Shown: positions 1 to 41,144, counted from the first letter of the stretch. The stretch: 64,000 bases of DNA from Bacteroidota bacterium (GCA_016718825.1 JADKCL010000004.1:91277-155276); one strand, 5' to 3'. Numbers and translations: made by a program. The notes: generated from the letters alone by a model not told the origin.

Positions 1-670
1 GACCGTAAGGGCACATGTAGATGCAGGCCTGCTCTCTGAAATAAGAGAATACAAAATAGAACACGCCGGTATTGATGAGCACAAATCCGAAAAGGAGAGG
101 ATGCTCCATCGGGGAATCACGAACATAACCCAAAACCGTATCCATCCCCAAAAAGAAGGCGATCACTGTATGGCTGACCCAAAATGCGATCAGAAGGAAA
201 ATGGTGTGTTTCAGAAGCCGCTTCCGAATCTTTTCCCCGTTCCAATCCTGGGCTTTCAGCTTCCGCTGCTTGGTATAATCACCTTCAATCCAATATTCGA
301 TGCGGCGATAGACCATTTCCAGGAATATGGTTTGTGGGCATGCCCATCCGCACCATATTCTTCCCAAGATGGCGGTAAAAAGGAAAATGAAAATGATAAA
401 GGTGACGGCAAAGATGGCAAACAAAACAAAGTCTTGCGGCCAGAATGCAAAGCCAAAAATGATGAACTTGCGCTGAAGTACATCCAGCAAGAAGAAGGGT
501 TCACCGTTGACTTTGATCCACGGAATGCCAAAAAAGATGATCAGTAATACAAAGCTGACGATCCGTCTAGCATTAAAAAACCGTCCACTCGGACGTTTGG
601 GGAAGAACCCGACACGACGACCAGAGTTGTTTACATTGTAGAGCTGATCGCGAAATTCTGCAGATTCCAT
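1..670 (-). CDS. ccoG: cbb3-type cytochrome c oxidase accessory protein CcoG/FixG (5' part; runs off the window start)
   Basis: Missing from the ORF track because it has no stop in the window. Manual translation from ATG 670 gives MESAEFRDQLYNV..., with GRIWCGWACPQTIFLEM and YFREQACIYMCPYG 4Fe-4S motifs; follows ccoP. Confidence 0.93.
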   Translation of the reverse strand, partial: MESAEFRDQLYNVNNSGRRVGFFPKRPSGRFFNARRIVSFVLLIIFFGIPWIKVNGEPFFLLDVLQRKFIIFGFAFWPQDFVLFAIFAVTFIIFIFLFTAILGRIWCGWACPQTIFLEMVYRRIEYWIEGDYTKQRKLKAQDWNGEKIRKRLLKHTIFLLIAFWVSHTVIAFFLGMDTVLGYVRDSPMEHPLLFGFVLINTGVFYFVFSYFREQACIYMCPYG

Positions 671-771
671 ATAGACTAGATTTTTTCAAGAACGCTTCGA
701 TCAAATAAAATATTCGGAAGCAAAGGCGGCGATAAACTTCCCACCTTATGCTTCCGAAATTACGTGGCTTA

Positions 772-1635
772 TTATTGCGGTTGTGTAACCGCGGTATCAT
801 TGGCAGCAGAATCTACTGCTACTTGAGCTGGTTCGGCACCTGCCACAACACCCTCAGGTGCACGTGGATTGGCGGGTTTGGAACCTTGCTTTGACAGAAT
901 ATAGCTCGCAATTGCGAGACGCTCTTGGGAAGGGATCCGATCCTTCCAAGAAATCATCGATTTGCCCGGGACACCATTGGTGATTGTGGCATAAAGATTC
1001 TTGATTTCACCACCATGAAGCCAGAATTCGTCAGTGAGATTGGGGCCCGATTCTCCACCCATATCCTTACGGTGACAGGTCGCGCAATTCTCAACAAACA
1101 CGGCCTCGGCGGCGGTCAATCGACCTGGATCTGTAACCAGAATCAACTGATCATCTGGCAATTCCACGCTCTTGTAAGTTTCAGCAGCAGTTGCCATTTC
1201 GAGCTCATATTCCTCTTTACTGGTCGGTCCCGTGCCAAGGAATTCATAGTGCACCATATAAACCACTGCGAAAATAATGGATCCGATAAAGATGAACCGC
1301 AACCATGCCGGCATGGGATTGTCCAACTCGCGAATACCATCGTATTCATGGTCGGTTTCAGGGTCAGGCGCATTTCGACCGACGATTCCGTCCCAAATAT
1401 ATTTGATGGACAGGTGGCTCGAATCTTTCACCGTCAAGACGGTGGCGATATAGCCGATGAGCAAGGCAATAATCACCAAGATGTAAATCAGAATCCTGAT
1501 TTCACCCAAGAAACTCTCCTCCAGTCTCACCGGAGGTTTTTCGGCTGCGAAGAGCGAAACGGAAGCCAGCATGAAGAAGGCACCGCTCAATATTGCCCTG
1601 AAATGCCGCGAAAGAAATTGAACTATCGTTTTCAT
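772..1635 (-). CDS. ccoP: cbb3-type cytochrome c oxidase subunit III (monoheme)
   Basis: HEYDGIRELDNPMP N-terminal motif, CATCH heme motif, GPNLTD, M ligand; start moved to ATG 1635 to clear ccoQ. Confidence 0.93.
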   Translation of the reverse strand: MKTIVQFLSRHFRAILSGAFFMLASVSLFAAEKPPVRLEESFLGEIRILIYILVIIALLIGYIATVLTVKDSSHLSIKYIWDGIVGRNAPDPETDHEYDGIRELDNPMPAWLRFIFIGSIIFAVVYMVHYEFLGTGPTSKEEYELEMATAAETYKSVELPDDQLILVTDPGRLTAAEAVFVENCATCHRKDMGGESGPNLTDEFWLHGGEIKNLYATITNGVPGKSMISWKDRIPSQERLAIASYILSKQGSKPANPRAPEGVVAGAEPAQVAVDSAANDTAVTQPQ

Positions 1636-16236: not shown

Positions 16237-16275
16237 CAAAGGTCATTCCGATAGACGGAATGACCTTTGTTTTTG
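16237..16275 (+). terminator. rho-independent terminator
   Basis: Perfect 14-bp stem CAAAGGTCATTCCG/CGGAATGACCTTTG, 5-nt loop, followed by a T-run. Confidence 0.9.
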
Positions 16276-26794: not shown

Positions 26795-27010
26795 TCAACA
26801 TTCACTCAGAAAATCCTTTAGCGATTGCAACTCGCGTCCTTCCTTCTTGGCATCGTCTACTTCCTTGAGTGCGTCTTTTATCCCTTGCAAAACTACCAGC
26901 TTCCGTTTGAATTCCTGGAATTGCTTTTCGAAGAGCAGCCAATCACTCATGGCGATTTGTACTGCAATTTGCTTGCCCGTCGCATCTGTGATATAATTCA
27001 AGTCAAGCAT
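26795..27010 (-). CDS. small antitoxin-like protein (no adjacent toxin)
   Basis: 71 aa, YITDATGKQIAVQI N-terminus and GRELQSLKDFLSE C-terminus, resembling antitoxins that precede RelE/ParE toxins; TATCTTTG promoter upstream. Confidence 0.55.
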   Translation of the reverse strand: MLDLNYITDATGKQIAVQIAMSDWLLFEKQFQEFKRKLVVLQGIKDALKEVDDAKKEGRELQSLKDFLSEC

Positions 27011-27319: not shown

Positions 27320-28330
27320 ATGGAAAGCGAAGAACAGAACATCATCATTTACAATACTGCCGACGGCAAGGCTGCAGTTGCTTTGTATGCCCGCGACGGT
27401 AGTGCTTGGATGAGTCAAGCGCAACTCGCAGAACTTTTTGACACCTCTAAGCAAAACATTGGCCAACACATCGCTAATGTACTGGATGATAAAGAGTTAA
27501 ATTCAAATTCAGTTGTAAAGAATTACTTTACAACTGCCTCTGACGGCAAGCAGTACGAAGTCACCTTCTACTCCCTCGACATGATCCTGGCGATCGGATT
27601 CCGGGTTCGAAGCAAACGCGGCACTCAGTTTCGCATCTGGGCCAACAACCACTTGCGGGAATACTTGGTCAAGGGCTTTGTGATGGACGATGAGCGGCTG
27701 AAGAATCCGAATGGCCGTTTTGACTATTTTGATGAGTTGTTGGAGCGCATCCGCGAAATCCGGGCATCGGAAAAGCGGTTTTATCAGAAGGTGCGGGATT
27801 TGTTTGCATTGAGCAGCGACTATGACCAAAGCGATAAGGCGACCCAAATGTTCTTTGCGGAGACCCAAAACAAGCTCCTCTATGCCGTCACAGGACAGAC
27901 AGCGGCCGAAGTCATTGTCTCACGCGCCAACGCGAGCCTCCCCAACATGGGTTTGACCTCTTGGAAAGGCAACGTCGTGCGCAAGCAAGACATCATCGTC
28001 GCCAAAAATTATCTCAATGCCGACGAACTCGATACCCTGAACCGATTGGTCGTGCTCTTCCTTGAAAGCGCCGAGCTCAGGGTGAAAAATCGTCAAGACA
28101 TCACGATGCGCTTCTGGCGGGACAATGTCGATCGGCTTCTAGAATTTCAAGACAAGCAAGTCCTGCAAGGCGTCGGACAAATCAGCCACGGCATGATGGA
28201 GGAGCAAGTACGCGAAGTTTATGCAGCGTTTGATCAGCAGCGCAAGGCCGCCGAAGCAGCTGCCGCGGATTTGTTTGATTTGGAGGAGTTGAAGGAGCTG
28301 GAGGAGGAGGTTGGGAAACGGAATGGGTGA
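27320..28330 (+). CDS. virulence RhuM family DNA-binding protein
   Basis: WMSQAQLAELF, YSLDMILAIGFRVRSKRGTQFRIWA, GFVMDDERLK, IRASEKRFYQKV, PNMGLTSW. Confidence 0.93.
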   Translation: MESEEQNIIIYNTADGKAAVALYARDGSAWMSQAQLAELFDTSKQNIGQHIANVLDDKELNSNSVVKNYFTTASDGKQYEVTFYSLDMILAIGFRVRSKRGTQFRIWANNHLREYLVKGFVMDDERLKNPNGRFDYFDELLERIREIRASEKRFYQKVRDLFALSSDYDQSDKATQMFFAETQNKLLYAVTGQTAAEVIVSRANASLPNMGLTSWKGNVVRKQDIIVAKNYLNADELDTLNRLVVLFLESAELRVKNRQDITMRFWRDNVDRLLEFQDKQVLQGVGQISHGMMEEQVREVYAAFDQQRKAAEAAAADLFDLEELKELEEEVGKRNG

Positions 28331-28430: not shown

Positions 28431-29570
28431 ATGCTTCCTTTCATCCAAGACATCATCAGCCGCTTTGGCGGTCGCTACCCGGGCAGCACTGCCGAAAGAG
28501 ACGCCCAAGCCTACACTGCGGAGTATCTGAAAAACTACTGCGACAAGGTGGAGGTTGAGGAGTTTCAGGCGCCTTTGGAATCCCATTTCGGGTCGATGAA
28601 GATCTTTGTGACGGTGTATTTTTTGGTGCTGATCCTGCTGAAAGTCAATGTCTATGCAGCTGGTTTGCTCGGAATTTTGAATACGGTCCTGTTTCTGGGG
28701 CATTTTGTGAGCTACCGGCATTGGCTGGATTTTTTGTGGCGGAAACAGGCGTCTTGGAACGTCATCGGCGACATCGAACCCACGGGTGAAGTGCGGGACA
28801 CGCTGATCATCGCCGGCCATATCGACAGCGTCCGCGAATTTCAGTGGTGGTACCGCTTCAAGCAGCGTGGCATCGAAATGACCCTGTTTGGCGGGTTTGC
28901 GCTGACATTCTTGGGCGTCTATGCGCTGCTGAGCATGGTCATCACAGCAAATTGGTGGAGTTACGGATGGTGGATTTTTGTGGTGATGGCGCCCTTGCAG
29001 CTGATTTGGTACAAATTTTTTGGAGATAGGGTCGTCGATGGCGCGATCGACAACCTCACGGGCGTGGCGCTCTCCGTCGAAATGGCCAAGGTCTTTTCGG
29101 CGCGCAGGCTCAAGCATACACGTTTGCGCGTGATCAGCTTCGGATCCGAGGAGGCGTGTTTGCGCGGGTCACATGCCTACGCACGGGCGCACAAGCAACA
29201 ATTGCTGGACGAAAAGGCATTTCTCTTTAACCTCGATTCGATCAAGGACCCAGAGCACTTGACGATTTGCATCAGCGAAATCAGCACGTTTGTTTACTAC
29301 AAAAAGGAACACATCGCGCTGGTGCAAAAGGCCTTTGACGATGCAGAAGTGCCCGCACTCAAGTTGCCGATCACGGTCGGCGCTTCGGATGGCTCAGCCT
29401 TCCATATGAACGGCTTGCCGGCGATCACGGTGATCGGCCTCAATTCGGGACGCTTGGACCCGACCTACCATACACGCCTCGACGTCGCGGCAAACATCAA
29501 TCCGCAAGCGCTGGAGTCCATGAAAGAGGTGCTGATCCGGTTTGTGGAGAATTGGGATGGGCGGGTTTGA
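28431..29570 (+). CDS. M28 family membrane metallopeptidase
   Basis: AGHIDS, GAIDNLTG, GSEEACLRGS, NLDSI, YHTRLD; TM segments. Confidence 0.88.
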   Translation: MLPFIQDIISRFGGRYPGSTAERDAQAYTAEYLKNYCDKVEVEEFQAPLESHFGSMKIFVTVYFLVLILLKVNVYAAGLLGILNTVLFLGHFVSYRHWLDFLWRKQASWNVIGDIEPTGEVRDTLIIAGHIDSVREFQWWYRFKQRGIEMTLFGGFALTFLGVYALLSMVITANWWSYGWWIFVVMAPLQLIWYKFFGDRVVDGAIDNLTGVALSVEMAKVFSARRLKHTRLRVISFGSEEACLRGSHAYARAHKQQLLDEKAFLFNLDSIKDPEHLTICISEISTFVYYKKEHIALVQKAFDDAEVPALKLPITVGASDGSAFHMNGLPAITVIGLNSGRLDPTYHTRLDVAANINPQALESMKEVLIRFVENWDGRV

Positions 29571-30094
29571 GGTGGACTGCCAGTCGACTTATGAGCAATC
29601 AACATTGGCGCTCCAAGAGAATTATCAAAAATCGTAGCTTCGCTCACGACCGGAAGGTAAATCCCAAACAGATTCTGCAGACCGCTTACATACCTTCTTC
29701 GGATAACATCTGTCTCAATGTTGTGCCCACCATTGCGCACTCTTTCGGCGACACGGTCAATGGCCAATTGAACGCTGTCCAACCAAAAAAACAACAAAGT
29801 CACGACGTACCCTTTCGCCTTGGCTTCCTCCACGGTCGTGCGGTAGCTTTTCGTTGCGAGGGTGGTCTCAAAAGCAAAGGTTTCGCCGCGCTCCAGAAGT
29901 TCGTCGATGCGCCTGAGCATGATCCTGCCAGCTTCAAAAGCAACCTTTTCCGGCTGAAAGGGCGACAAGCCGCGGGCTATTTCGTCGGCATTGACAAACT
30001 CTTTGCAGTTCAAAATCTCGGGCAAAATGGTAAAGGATGCCGTCGTTTTTCCAGCTCCATTGCAACCTGCGATGATAAATAGGCGCTTGACCAT
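29465..30094 (-). CDS. zeta-toxin-like P-loop ATPase (AAA_33), C-terminus probably truncated
   Basis: AGCNGAGKTT, FVNADEIARGLSPF, FETTLAT, RVRNGGHNI, FDNS; final ~35 codons are antisense to the M28 gene. Confidence 0.8.
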   Translation of the reverse strand: MVKRLFIIAGCNGAGKTTASFTILPEILNCKEFVNADEIARGLSPFQPEKVAFEAGRIMLRRIDELLERGETFAFETTLATKSYRTTVEEAKAKGYVVTLLFFWLDSVQLAIDRVAERVRNGGHNIETDVIRRRYVSGLQNLFGIYLPVVSEATIFDNSLGAPMLIAHKSTGSPPQTRPSQFSTNRISTSFMDSSACGLMFAATSRRVW

Positions 30095-40096: not shown

Positions 40097-40161
40097 TGCA
40101 AAAACGGCGATTCCAGCGTTTCTGATCATATTGCCGACGTCGGCAAAATGATCAGAAACGC
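40097..40161. repeat. non-coding copy of an internal dinD segment containing a 46-bp near-perfect palindrome
   Basis: 40097-129 matches 40449-481 at 31/33 nt; 40116-161 has 23-bp arms with one mismatch. Confidence 0.9.
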
Positions 40162-40289: not shown

Positions 40290-41144
40290 ATGAAACAAGA
40301 ACTTATCACCGAACTCTTCGAAAAATTCGAAAAAGCCTGCTATTCCTACAATGGACTAGAGTGCTGGAGCGCCCGTGAGCTCATGGAAATTTTTGAATAC
40401 ACCAAGTGGGAAAACTTCGCCAAGGTGGTTGAAAAAGCGAAACTCTCCTGCGAAAACGCCGATTCCAGCGTTTCTGATCATTTTCTTGATGTCAGGAAGA
40501 TGATCCAGACTGGCAAAGGGGCGGAAAGGGAGATTCAAGACATCGCACTCACACGCTATGCCTGCTACCTGATCGCTCAAAATGGTGACCCTGCAAAAAA
40601 TCCGGTTGCCTTTGCCCAGACTTACTTTGCTGTCCAGACCCGGAAGCAAGAAATGGTGGAACAGCGGCTTCTGAACGTCGCGCGGGTGACGGCGAGAGAA
40701 AAGCTTTCCAAAACGGAAACCAAACTTTCGAAAATTCTCTATGACCGCGGCGTCGACCACCATGGGTTTGCAAGAATCCGCTCCCAAGGCGACCAAGCAC
40801 TGTTTGGCGGAAACTCCACCGGAGAAATGAAAAAGCAGTTAAAAATCCCGGAAAACAGACCCTTGGCTGATTTCCTACCAACATTGATCATCAAAGCCAA
40901 GGACTTTGCAACTGAGCTCACGAGCCACAATGTTGTCGACAAGAACTTGCATGGTGAAGCGCCCATCACCCATGAGCATGTCGACAACAACCGCGCAGTG
41001 CGCAAAATGCTGAAAGAACGTGGCGTGAAACCAGAGGAGTTGCCGCCTTCGGAAGATGTCAAAAAGGTGCAGCGACAACTTGCCAATGAGGAAAAGGCCA
41101 TTGCTGCTGGAGCGAAAAAGCCAACCGGAAATCCGCAACAATAG
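40290..41144 (+). CDS. dinD: DNA damage-inducible protein D (Bro-N-like N-terminus)
   Basis: ECWSARELM, LTRYACYLIAQNGDP.K..VAFAQTYFAVQTRKQE, RPLADFLPT..IKAKDFATE, EHVDNN. Confidence 0.93.
   Translation: MKQELITELFEKFEKACYSYNGLECWSARELMEIFEYTKWENFAKVVEKAKLSCENADSSVSDHFLDVRKMIQTGKGAEREIQDIALTRYACYLIAQNGDPAKNPVAFAQTYFAVQTRKQEMVEQRLLNVARVTAREKLSKTETKLSKILYDRGVDHHGFARIRSQGDQALFGGNSTGEMKKQLKIPENRPLADFLPTLIIKAKDFATELTSHNVVDKNLHGEAPITHEHVDNNRAVRKMLKERGVKPEELPPSEDVKKVQRQLANEEKAIAAGAKKPTGNPQQ

Follow-up and report, generated by a model that had tools for sequence, protein, structure and literature searches.

A gene of the RhuM family, PDC-S05 in PADLOC, lies on the plus strand of a 64,000-nucleotide stretch of DNA from a Bacteroidota bacterium (GCA_016718825.1, JADKCL010000004.1:91277-155276), hereafter the window. 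The coding sequence of this gene contains a perfect 11-bp inverted repeat with a 5-nt spacer, and it is this palindrome, its conservation among RhuM genes and its relation to the protein encoded around it that are considered here. The features of the locus, in window coordinates, are:

27320..28330, plus strand: RhuM-family (PDC-S05) gene, 336 amino acids, defined by its open reading frame (ORF) and by matches to PF13310 and PADLOC PDC-S05
27320..27673, plus strand: predicted N-terminal Bro-N-like winged-helix domain, codons 1-118 (AlphaFold2 (AF2) model and a sub-cutoff Bro-N match)
27431..27445, plus strand: block A, GAACTTTTTGACACC, codons 38-42, with invariant nucleotides; left edge of the cassette
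27446..27574, plus strand: exchanged specificity cassette, codons 43 to 72-85, comprising helix, linker, palindrome and wing (delimited from near-identical gene pairs)
27449..27487, plus strand: recognition helix α3, codons 44-56, here KQNIGQHIANVLD (AF2 helix whose residues carry palindrome-class information)
27509..28249, plus strand: RhuM Pfam domain, residues 64-310 (Pfam envelope; AF2 model)
27510..27520, no strand assigned: left arm of the palindrome, CAGTTGTAAAG; outer box CAGT conserved, positions 5-6 tolerant of mismatches, positions 7-11 class-specific
27521..27525, no strand assigned: 5-bp spacer AATTA, A/T-rich, invariant in length and variable in sequence
27526..27536, no strand assigned: right arm, CTTTACAACTG, pairing with the left arm

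The palindrome is in frame with the gene, and codons 64-73 across it read S-VVKNYFTT-A. The inverted repeat, its frame and its coding had been described in an earlier note on this DNA, together with the local base composition (18 of the 60 nt at 27481-27540 are G or C, as are 32 of the following 60), and the repeat was confirmed at 27510-27536, with both composition figures exact on recount. The window holds two perfect hairpins of at least 11 bp, compared to 0.2 expected from Markov shuffles; the only other long one is a perfect 14-bp hairpin, CAAAGGTCATTCCG-ATAGA-CGGAATGACCTTTG, at 16237-16269. The 7.7-Mb genome contains 70 perfect palindromes with arms of at least 11 bp and a 5-nt spacer, mostly terminators, so that a single copy taken alone lacks significance, which comes instead from comparison with relatives. 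No other palindrome of the CAGT..ACTG type was found in the 7.7-Mb genome, where the RhuM site is single-copy.

The RhuM protein matches PF13310 over residues 64-310 (E=2e-110, 368 bits against a cutoff of 33.7) and PADLOC PDC-S05 over residues 3-332 (E=2e-147), and the gene has more than 590 relatives across phyla at 68-79% amino-acid identity. The Pfam envelope opens at residue 64, the Ser codon with which the palindrome starts. In the AF2 model (mean pLDDT, the predicted local distance difference test score, of 89.6), the N-terminal domain consists of strands 7-12, 19-25 and 28-32, helices 33-39, 44-56, 86-95 and 99-118, and wing strands 66-72 and 78-85, which together make up a winged helix-turn-helix, followed by a helical C-terminal body. 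Mapping the motif onto a predicted structure, as the earlier note had proposed, thus places the palindrome at the first strand of the wing. The Bro-N match to the N-terminus is weak (E=0.005; 17.8 bits, below the Pfam cutoff of 25.6), and Foldseek with the AF2 model returned weak winged-helix matches only, for example to DdrC, PadR and MarR. A sequence search detected no relative of the protein in the PDB, and a fold search detected none for the body.

Homologues were sampled twice. The first sample comprises 80 loci from Bacteroidota, Pseudomonadota, Chlorobiota, Cloacimonadota, Chloroflexota and other phyla, relatives within the identity range given above that were retrieved with search patterns avoiding the palindrome motif. 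The second comprises 80 further loci, including archaea and candidate phyla radiation (CPR) bacteria, of the subfamily of a paralogue located on contig C61 of the same genome, for a total of 161 genes. All 161, from many phyla, have the same 11+5+11 architecture at the same codons, with a spacer that is always 5 nt. The arms are perfect in 88 genes and have one mismatch in 45, two in 27 and three in 1; they come in 53 variants, of which 19 pair perfectly. Departures from Watson-Crick pairing are all but absent at pairs 7-11, which have three to four pair types each; the mismatches gather at pairs 5-6, and the outer box CAGT/ACTG is nearly constant.

Within the first sample the string TCAGTTGTAAAGAATTACTTTACAACTGCC is near-invariant and its variants are paired. 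A synonymous Val codon changes together with the Phe or Leu codons on the other side (GTA..TTT, GTT..TTA, GTC..TTG), and further paired variants are ATT..ATA and AAA..TAT. Synonymous sites are saturated throughout the gene, with per-codon entropy close to expectation, except in the palindrome arms and in block A; the frozen arm codons are TCA (78/78), GTT (79/80), AAG (78/81), ACA (67/74) and ACT (81/81). In an alignment of codons 30-90 from the 80 homologues, 97% of the arm cells are paired, and pair 8 is A-U in 37 genes, U-A in 26 and C-G in 14. None of 500 shuffles reached the observed arm covariation, and sliding the 3' partner destroyed the pairing. The C61 paralogue, at 44% identity, carries TCAGTATGTGCA-TTTTT-TGCACATACTGCC at the same codons with 7 of the 11 pairs different; this paralogue (~278-986, minus strand) is broken by a frameshift near residue 130, and its palindrome, also recorded as CAGTATGTGCA-AAAAA-TGCACATACTG, is still perfect. 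The second sample adds the arm pairs CAGTATGTGCA/TGCACATACTG, CAGTTATTCGA/TCGAATAACTG, CAGTATGTTCC/GGAACATACTG, CAGTTGTTCGG/CCGAACAACTG, TGGTATGTTCC/GGAACATACCA, GAACTATTCGA/TCGAATAGTTC and others, always as 11+5+11. The arms covary while the encoded motif itself changes, through VVK..FTT, VVK..LTT, VCA..AHT, VIR..RIT, VVS..ETT and TTR..RVV. The earlier note had suggested that RhuM proteins vary in this motif in ways compatible with a palindrome and had suggested looking for arm covariation in homologues; both expectations are borne out family-wide. The comparison of homologous genes shows an element that is common to the family and under purifying selection at the nucleotide level. No published account of a RhuM palindrome was found in the literature searched.

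A palindrome arising by chance, or as a by-product of amino-acid constraints, could appeal to the 70 palindromes of the same type in the genome and to the fact that the motif is a conserved protein segment. It fails, however, to account for a Ser codon that is TCA and a Thr codon that is ACT in every case, for the covariation of a synonymous Val codon with the Phe and Leu codons, and for 19 distinct perfect arm pairs at the same codons. Arm conservation and covariation have already refuted it.

The base composition around the palindrome is a feature of the family as well. Codons 55-73 have a mean GC content of 34%, the remainder of the gene 42%, and in 71 of 80 genes this segment is the lower of the two. 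The GC dip is a consequence of the conserved AT-rich palindrome and of a linker rich in Lys, Glu and Asn rather than of a recent local rewrite. Since the dip is common to homologues, it gives no sign of local replacement, and the suggestion in the earlier note that the segment had been replaced or rewritten does not hold on that ground.

The sequence of the inner arms is linked to that of the predicted recognition helix. Each inner stem (positions 7-11) accompanies one type of helix 44-56: TAAAG occurs with SKQNIGQHI, TTAAG with SVPNISMHI, TCAAG with SKQNISLHI, GTGCA with DRTVVTKHL, GTTCC with QRPAITKHL, and xxCGG with ..EH.. in three backgrounds. The match holds again in the second gene of a tandem pair (L025) and in a gene from an Escherichia coli island. 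Within subfamily 1, residue 49 fully predicts pair 8 (mutual information relative to entropy, MI/H, of 1.00), with Q corresponding to A.T, M to T.A, and L or Y to C.G. Residues 44 (0.43), 45 (0.63), 48 (0.51) and 52 (0.54) are also informative about class and, like residue 49, lie on the same helix face. MI/H does not exceed 0.19 for residues 74, 78 and 80, nor for linker residues 56-63, a highly variable stretch that separates helix from palindrome. The class-predicting residues are coded approximately 45-60 nt upstream of the palindrome. Variant proteins therefore have distinct elements, the type of helix corresponding one to one, as a correlation, to the inner stem. Within a class, third-position pairs at which both partners could change synonymously never vary (for example TCA/ACT, pair 2), and it follows that the sequence is constrained and not the pairing alone.

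This bears on a second explanation, in which the element would act as a folded nucleic acid, either as an mRNA hairpin or, in single-stranded or supercoiled DNA, as a hairpin or cruciform, recognized by a protein or nuclease through its structure and its CAGT/ACTG foot, with processing, pausing, recombination or sensing as proposed roles. The perfect stem has a predicted RNA folding energy of -13.9 kcal/mol (z = -5.7), the covariation is strong, compensatory changes occur at positions 1-2 and 5-6 within one helix class, and the conserved 4-nt foot is reminiscent of the hairpins of repetitive extragenic palindromic elements and their associated transposases (REP/RAYT). Against these stand the scarcity of G.T among the 102 non-Watson-Crick cells (9 when read on the sense strand, 26 on the antisense), most of which are T.T or A.A, and the prevalence of transversions (A.T, T.A, C.G) that permit no wobble intermediate. 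No pair changes its sequence inside a class, not even one open to a double synonymous swap, and in 28 of the 161 genes the stem is interrupted by an internal loop of 2x2 or worse, so that helices of 4 and 5 bp are what remains. The spacer stays at 5 even in non-coding free copies (described below), the RNAalifold covariation term is only -0.86, and Rfam 15 gave nothing meaningful at E<=10. RNAalifold over codons 30-90 yielded the hairpin alone and no larger RNA structure. Low G.T counts, class-fixed pairs, arms that track the helix and a fixed 5-bp spacer argue for a sequence-specific DNA site, and the hairpin reading of the earlier note, in the sense of a folded RNA or single strand, suits the data less well; we regard a folded element as unlikely. 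Two related candidates were set aside: a programmed frameshift or bypass signal, as there is no slippery X XXY YYZ upstream of the stem and the upstream codons are variable, and a hairpin element of the REP/RAYT or attC type, as there is one copy per RhuM gene and no adjacent transposase.

An intrinsic terminator acting on antisense transcription that enters the 5' part of the gene is a further structural possibility. A consensus scan flags the minus strand, with the tail AATTTGAATT, and AATTTTC follows the stem on that strand in many homologues. The stem, however, is A/T-rich with four G-C pairs, the tail is weak and its codons are not conserved, there is no T-run on the plus strand, and a terminator requires neither a fixed arm sequence nor a coupling of class to helix nor copies within phage ORFs. 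We consider this explanation very improbable.

Helix and palindrome were also set against the rest of the gene; the earlier note had called for a comparison of trees of segment and flanks. On a tree of the C-terminal domain the palindrome classes are scattered, with 32 changes against a shuffled mean of 36, and ancestry alone would therefore not produce the pattern of helices and stems. Three pairs of genes with near-identical C-terminal domains (L013/L026, L016/L065 and L048/L079) differ mainly in the cassette, the first two pairs being examples of a difference in class, and the differences are concentrated in codons 43-72 or 43-85, beginning directly after block A. In the first pair, RhuM paralogues on two contigs of one Haliscomenobacter metagenome-assembled genome, the C-terminal domains are almost identical and codons 1-42 are identical, the recognition helices are GQ and SM, respectively, and the palindrome classes differ. 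Because the differences in such sister genes are concentrated in codons 43-72/85, reader and site are shown, as far as gene comparison goes, to be exchanged together as one cassette. The idea of a rewritten segment thus survives in part: the motif does lie inside codons that are exchanged between alleles, while the GC dip is no sign of it.

Block A, at the left edge of the cassette, is itself conserved at the nucleotide level in subfamily 1 (CTT 81/81, TTT 81/81, ACC 77/81, GAA 71/77) and is not conserved in the C61 paralogue or the other subfamily. Possible roles for it are those of a recombination anchor or a second site. As an internal promoter it was rejected, as TTGACA is present with no conserved -10 at 16-18 nt, and its predicted pairing with codons 57-60 is not conserved, GAA at codon 59 breaking it in 31 of 81 genes. 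An apparent 360-nt insert at L025 proved to be a second, tandem RhuM gene of another class: L025:3001-4360 contains two RhuM-family genes, one of subfamily 1 followed by one of the GRPTITEHL / GTCGG class. The E. coli gene, at L382:3675-4709 on the chromosome of strain 1585m1, lies in an island beside IS21 and mobI(A/C). Its palindrome, CAACCATCCGG-AAATT-CCGGATAGTTC, has 9 of 11 pairs matched and its helix is DVRTINEHL, and the gene is a possible laboratory model.

Copies of the palindrome also occur outside RhuM genes. A search of IMG/VR for the 22 specified bases with any 5-nt spacer found the exact AT-class palindrome in 31 viral contigs and the TA-class palindrome in 22, none of them inside a RhuM gene, while two control palindromes of the same composition gave no match in the viral contigs and the chance expectation, by our own estimate, is about 0.01 per pattern. 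When spacers of 0-12 were allowed, 31 of 32 free viral copies had a spacer of 5, and the spacer is biased to GATTR. The C61-type palindrome has 12 viral occurrences, 10 of which are in RhuM genes or remnants on viral contigs. Free copies are situated in genes for ParB-like, exonuclease VIII-like and resolvase-like proteins and for a DnaK homologue whose length is unchanged, in linkers of very large proteins, in short ORFs and in non-coding DNA. Eight complete or near-complete phages, with GC contents of 27-62%, contain exactly one copy each, in unrelated genes. No RhuM-type N-domain was found among the proteins of the 31 viral records. The possibility of several decoy classes per phage was rejected, as the eight phages have the single copy and almost no other palindrome of the same geometry. 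A scan of bacterial genomes gave at least 120 palindrome matches; among the matches listed, 104 of 120 are in RhuM genes and 16 are free, some of the latter adjoining RhuM remnants of another class (L290, L241).

The free copies differ from the genic ones in one respect. In 16 of 43 non-redundant free copies, with 2.7 expected, the arms are longer by 2-7 complementary bases of varying sequence, TT/AA being the commonest extension. The extensions suggest a half-site of 13 bp in its unconstrained form, which the gene cannot hold because the next codon is Ala. The arbitrary sequence of the extensions points to a role for strand complementarity, through hairpin formation or template switching, and such lengthening into longer perfect palindromes with arbitrary flanks would suit a folded element. 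A related structure is present in the window. A 46-nt near-perfect palindrome at 40116-40161 (96%, with two 23-nt arms and no spacer) precedes a DinD/Bro-N gene (40290-41144; Bro-N E=3e-9) by about 130 nt. Codons of that gene, AAAACGSCGATTCCAGCGTTTCTGATCAT (..SVSDH..), recur in the left half of the palindrome and are mirrored in the right half; the coding palindrome of the resident gene itself, at ~40470-40510, is degenerate. The upstream palindrome has the appearance of an orphan that duplicates a DinD-type coding palindrome in "perfected" form, a parallel to the RhuM case, and its long arms would again be in keeping with a folded element.

Extensions and orphans are equally the starting point for an explanation that dispenses with a reader. 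The palindrome would then be a quasipalindrome that perpetuates itself, intramolecular template switching at replication restoring the complementarity of its arms; along with block A, it would mainly be an anchor for helix-cassette exchange, or a result of it, and the orphans would be recombination scars. The cassette is indeed bounded on the left by the invariant block A and on the right by the palindrome or a point beyond it, orphan palindromes are found at junctions beside RhuM remnants (L290, L241), and the orphan upstream of dinD is a foldback copy of dinD codons. In addition, many of the PADLOC PDC-S05 models matched are RhuM-fragment models of only 80-87 residues, corresponding to residues 1-80, and truncated N-terminal fragments that end just past the palindrome therefore seem common in genomes. 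Template switching, however, copies changes between arms and does not prevent them. It leaves unexplained the invariance of the arms within a class, compared to saturated synonymous sites and a hypervariable adjacent linker, the exact agreement over 22 nt among 53 phage copies that lie in unrelated genes, one per genome, in phages with GC contents of 27-62%, and the specific tie to residues on the helix face. We consider an element without a reader rather improbable.

Most likely, the palindrome is where the RhuM protein itself docks, and not a hairpin that arose by chance. In its fuller form, to which we lean on balance, the proposal is that the winged-helix dimer of RhuM has its cognate site here, in double-stranded DNA, much as the defence protein BstA has its aba element. 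The predicted site is 11+5+11 bp in the gene and would be 13+5+13 in the unconstrained form, TTCAGTTGTNAAG-N5-CTTNACAACTGAA, and its reader would be a dimer of the N-terminal Bro-N-like winged-helix domain. The class-specific positions 7-11, about 5 bp on either side of the dyad, would be read by two recognition helices one helical turn apart, and the outer CAGT/ACTG box would be contacted by the wing. Such a site could work in cis as the protein's "home" site. One option is an autoregulatory roadblock at +190; another, by analogy with BstA and aba, is that the cognate DNA element keeps the defence protein inactive, in which case the phage copies would be captured immunity or decoy sites, and an arms race would have left the many specificity classes behind. 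An intragenic site adjoining the helix would keep reader and site linked through recombination and horizontal transfer.

Several observations weigh against a cognate operator of this kind. Approximately 45% of the genes have one or two arm mismatches. Compensatory changes at positions 1-2 and 5-6 inside one helix class (AT/AT, AA/TT, TTAG/CTAA, TGGT/ACCA) are not predicted by a plain operator model, nor do the arbitrary arm extensions of the free copies sit easily with it. With only some 50 nt between helix and palindrome, linkage may account for part of their association. This genome contains no second copy of the site, and hence no regulon. A RhuM of the cognate class is absent from the bacterial genomes with orphan copies (0/10), six of these ten genomes being without any RhuM and the others having other subfamilies. 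Finally, the aba element of BstA has direct and not inverted repeats.

What is known of RhuM places it in a defence context. It has been predicted as a toxin domain of type I restriction-modification (R-M) neighbourhoods (PMC3710099) and is enriched beside inverting hsdS genes (PMC9881135), and one PDC-S05 representative, another gene than the present one, shielded E. coli B 10- to 1000-fold against T7, T5 and T4 (bioRxiv 10.1101/2024.09.26.614923). The RhuM gene of the window is a lone insert outside any type I R-M operon, flanked by small antitoxin-like and zeta-toxin/AAA-like ORFs (26795-27010 and 29465-30094, both on the minus strand).

The closest parallel is BstA, a KilA-N-domain prophage protein of abortive infection that is suppressed by a 63-bp DNA element overlapping its gene; the element acts in the form of DNA, each BstA variant has its own cognate version, and a foreign phage to which it is transferred becomes immune (Owen et al. 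2021, PMC8585504). Both are defence proteins, for which an N-terminal DNA-binding domain of viral type would be a common trait (KilA-N in BstA, putatively Bro-N-like in RhuM), both have a short DNA element overlapping their own gene (in all RhuM genes examined), and in both variant proteins are paired with variant elements. The immunity that the BstA element brings to a phage is matched by the exact copies of the RhuM palindrome in phage genomes. The two differ in that aba is 63 bp long, at the start of bstA, with terminal direct CCCGCC repeats, whereas the RhuM element is an inverted repeat of 27-31 bp at codons 64-72, and in that BstA is prophage-borne and requires self-immunity for induction, whereas this RhuM is a lone chromosomal gene. 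Suppression by the DNA element has been shown for BstA; for the RhuM palindrome the sole hint of it is an indirect one, the 53 exact copies in phage contigs without a RhuM gene.

Other known systems share part of the pattern. Intragenic operators such as that of PurR in purB or lac O2 act as transcription roadblocks and, as the RhuM element would be, are palindromic repressor sites in coding sequence some 200 bp past the start. Unlike it, they belong to regulons, are not bound to their regulator's own gene, dictate no conserved protein motif, and have neither class diversification nor phage copies. In type I R-M systems the target-recognition domains of HsdS swap specificity cassettes, and R-M systems also have controllers of the C-protein/C-box kind. 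HsdS resembles RhuM in that DNA-reading modules in many discrete specificity classes are shuffled between otherwise conserved genes, and R-M systems and RhuM have a defence-island context in common; the target site of RhuM, however, would ride in the reader's own cassette, whereas HsdS targets sit in foreign DNA. Quasipalindrome correction by template switching, as described in E. coli, and REP/RAYT hairpins share with RhuM the concerted evolution of arms, the conserved 4-nt foot, and free copies that are perfected and extended. RhuM differs from these in its single-copy site, the absence of an HUH transposase nearby, the purifying selection and the tie to the recognition helix.

A more far-reaching proposal, which we offer tentatively and would not expect to hold in full, is that RhuM is a one-protein defence with a DNA antidote. 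A dimer bound to the palindrome in its own gene would keep the C-terminal effector silent or scarce, until infection removes or outcompetes the site, for example through degradation of host DNA or takeover of the cell. Phages would escape by means of an exact copy of the palindrome anywhere in their genome, even within unrelated coding sequence, and hosts would respond by swapping the cassette; DNA sites would be the weapons in an arms race over specificity. A similar mechanism may apply to the coding palindromes of DinD/Bro-N genes.

RhuM (PDC-S05) is among the most widespread of the single-gene defence candidates. If nine residues of the protein are dictated by a cis element that varies in step with the recognition helix and has exact duplicates in phage genomes, that element would provide the first handle on the target of the RhuM N-terminal domain and would offer a likely case of phage counter-defence that consists of DNA only. 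It would also be a general example of how a DNA site within a gene can shape part of the sequence of the protein family encoded there.

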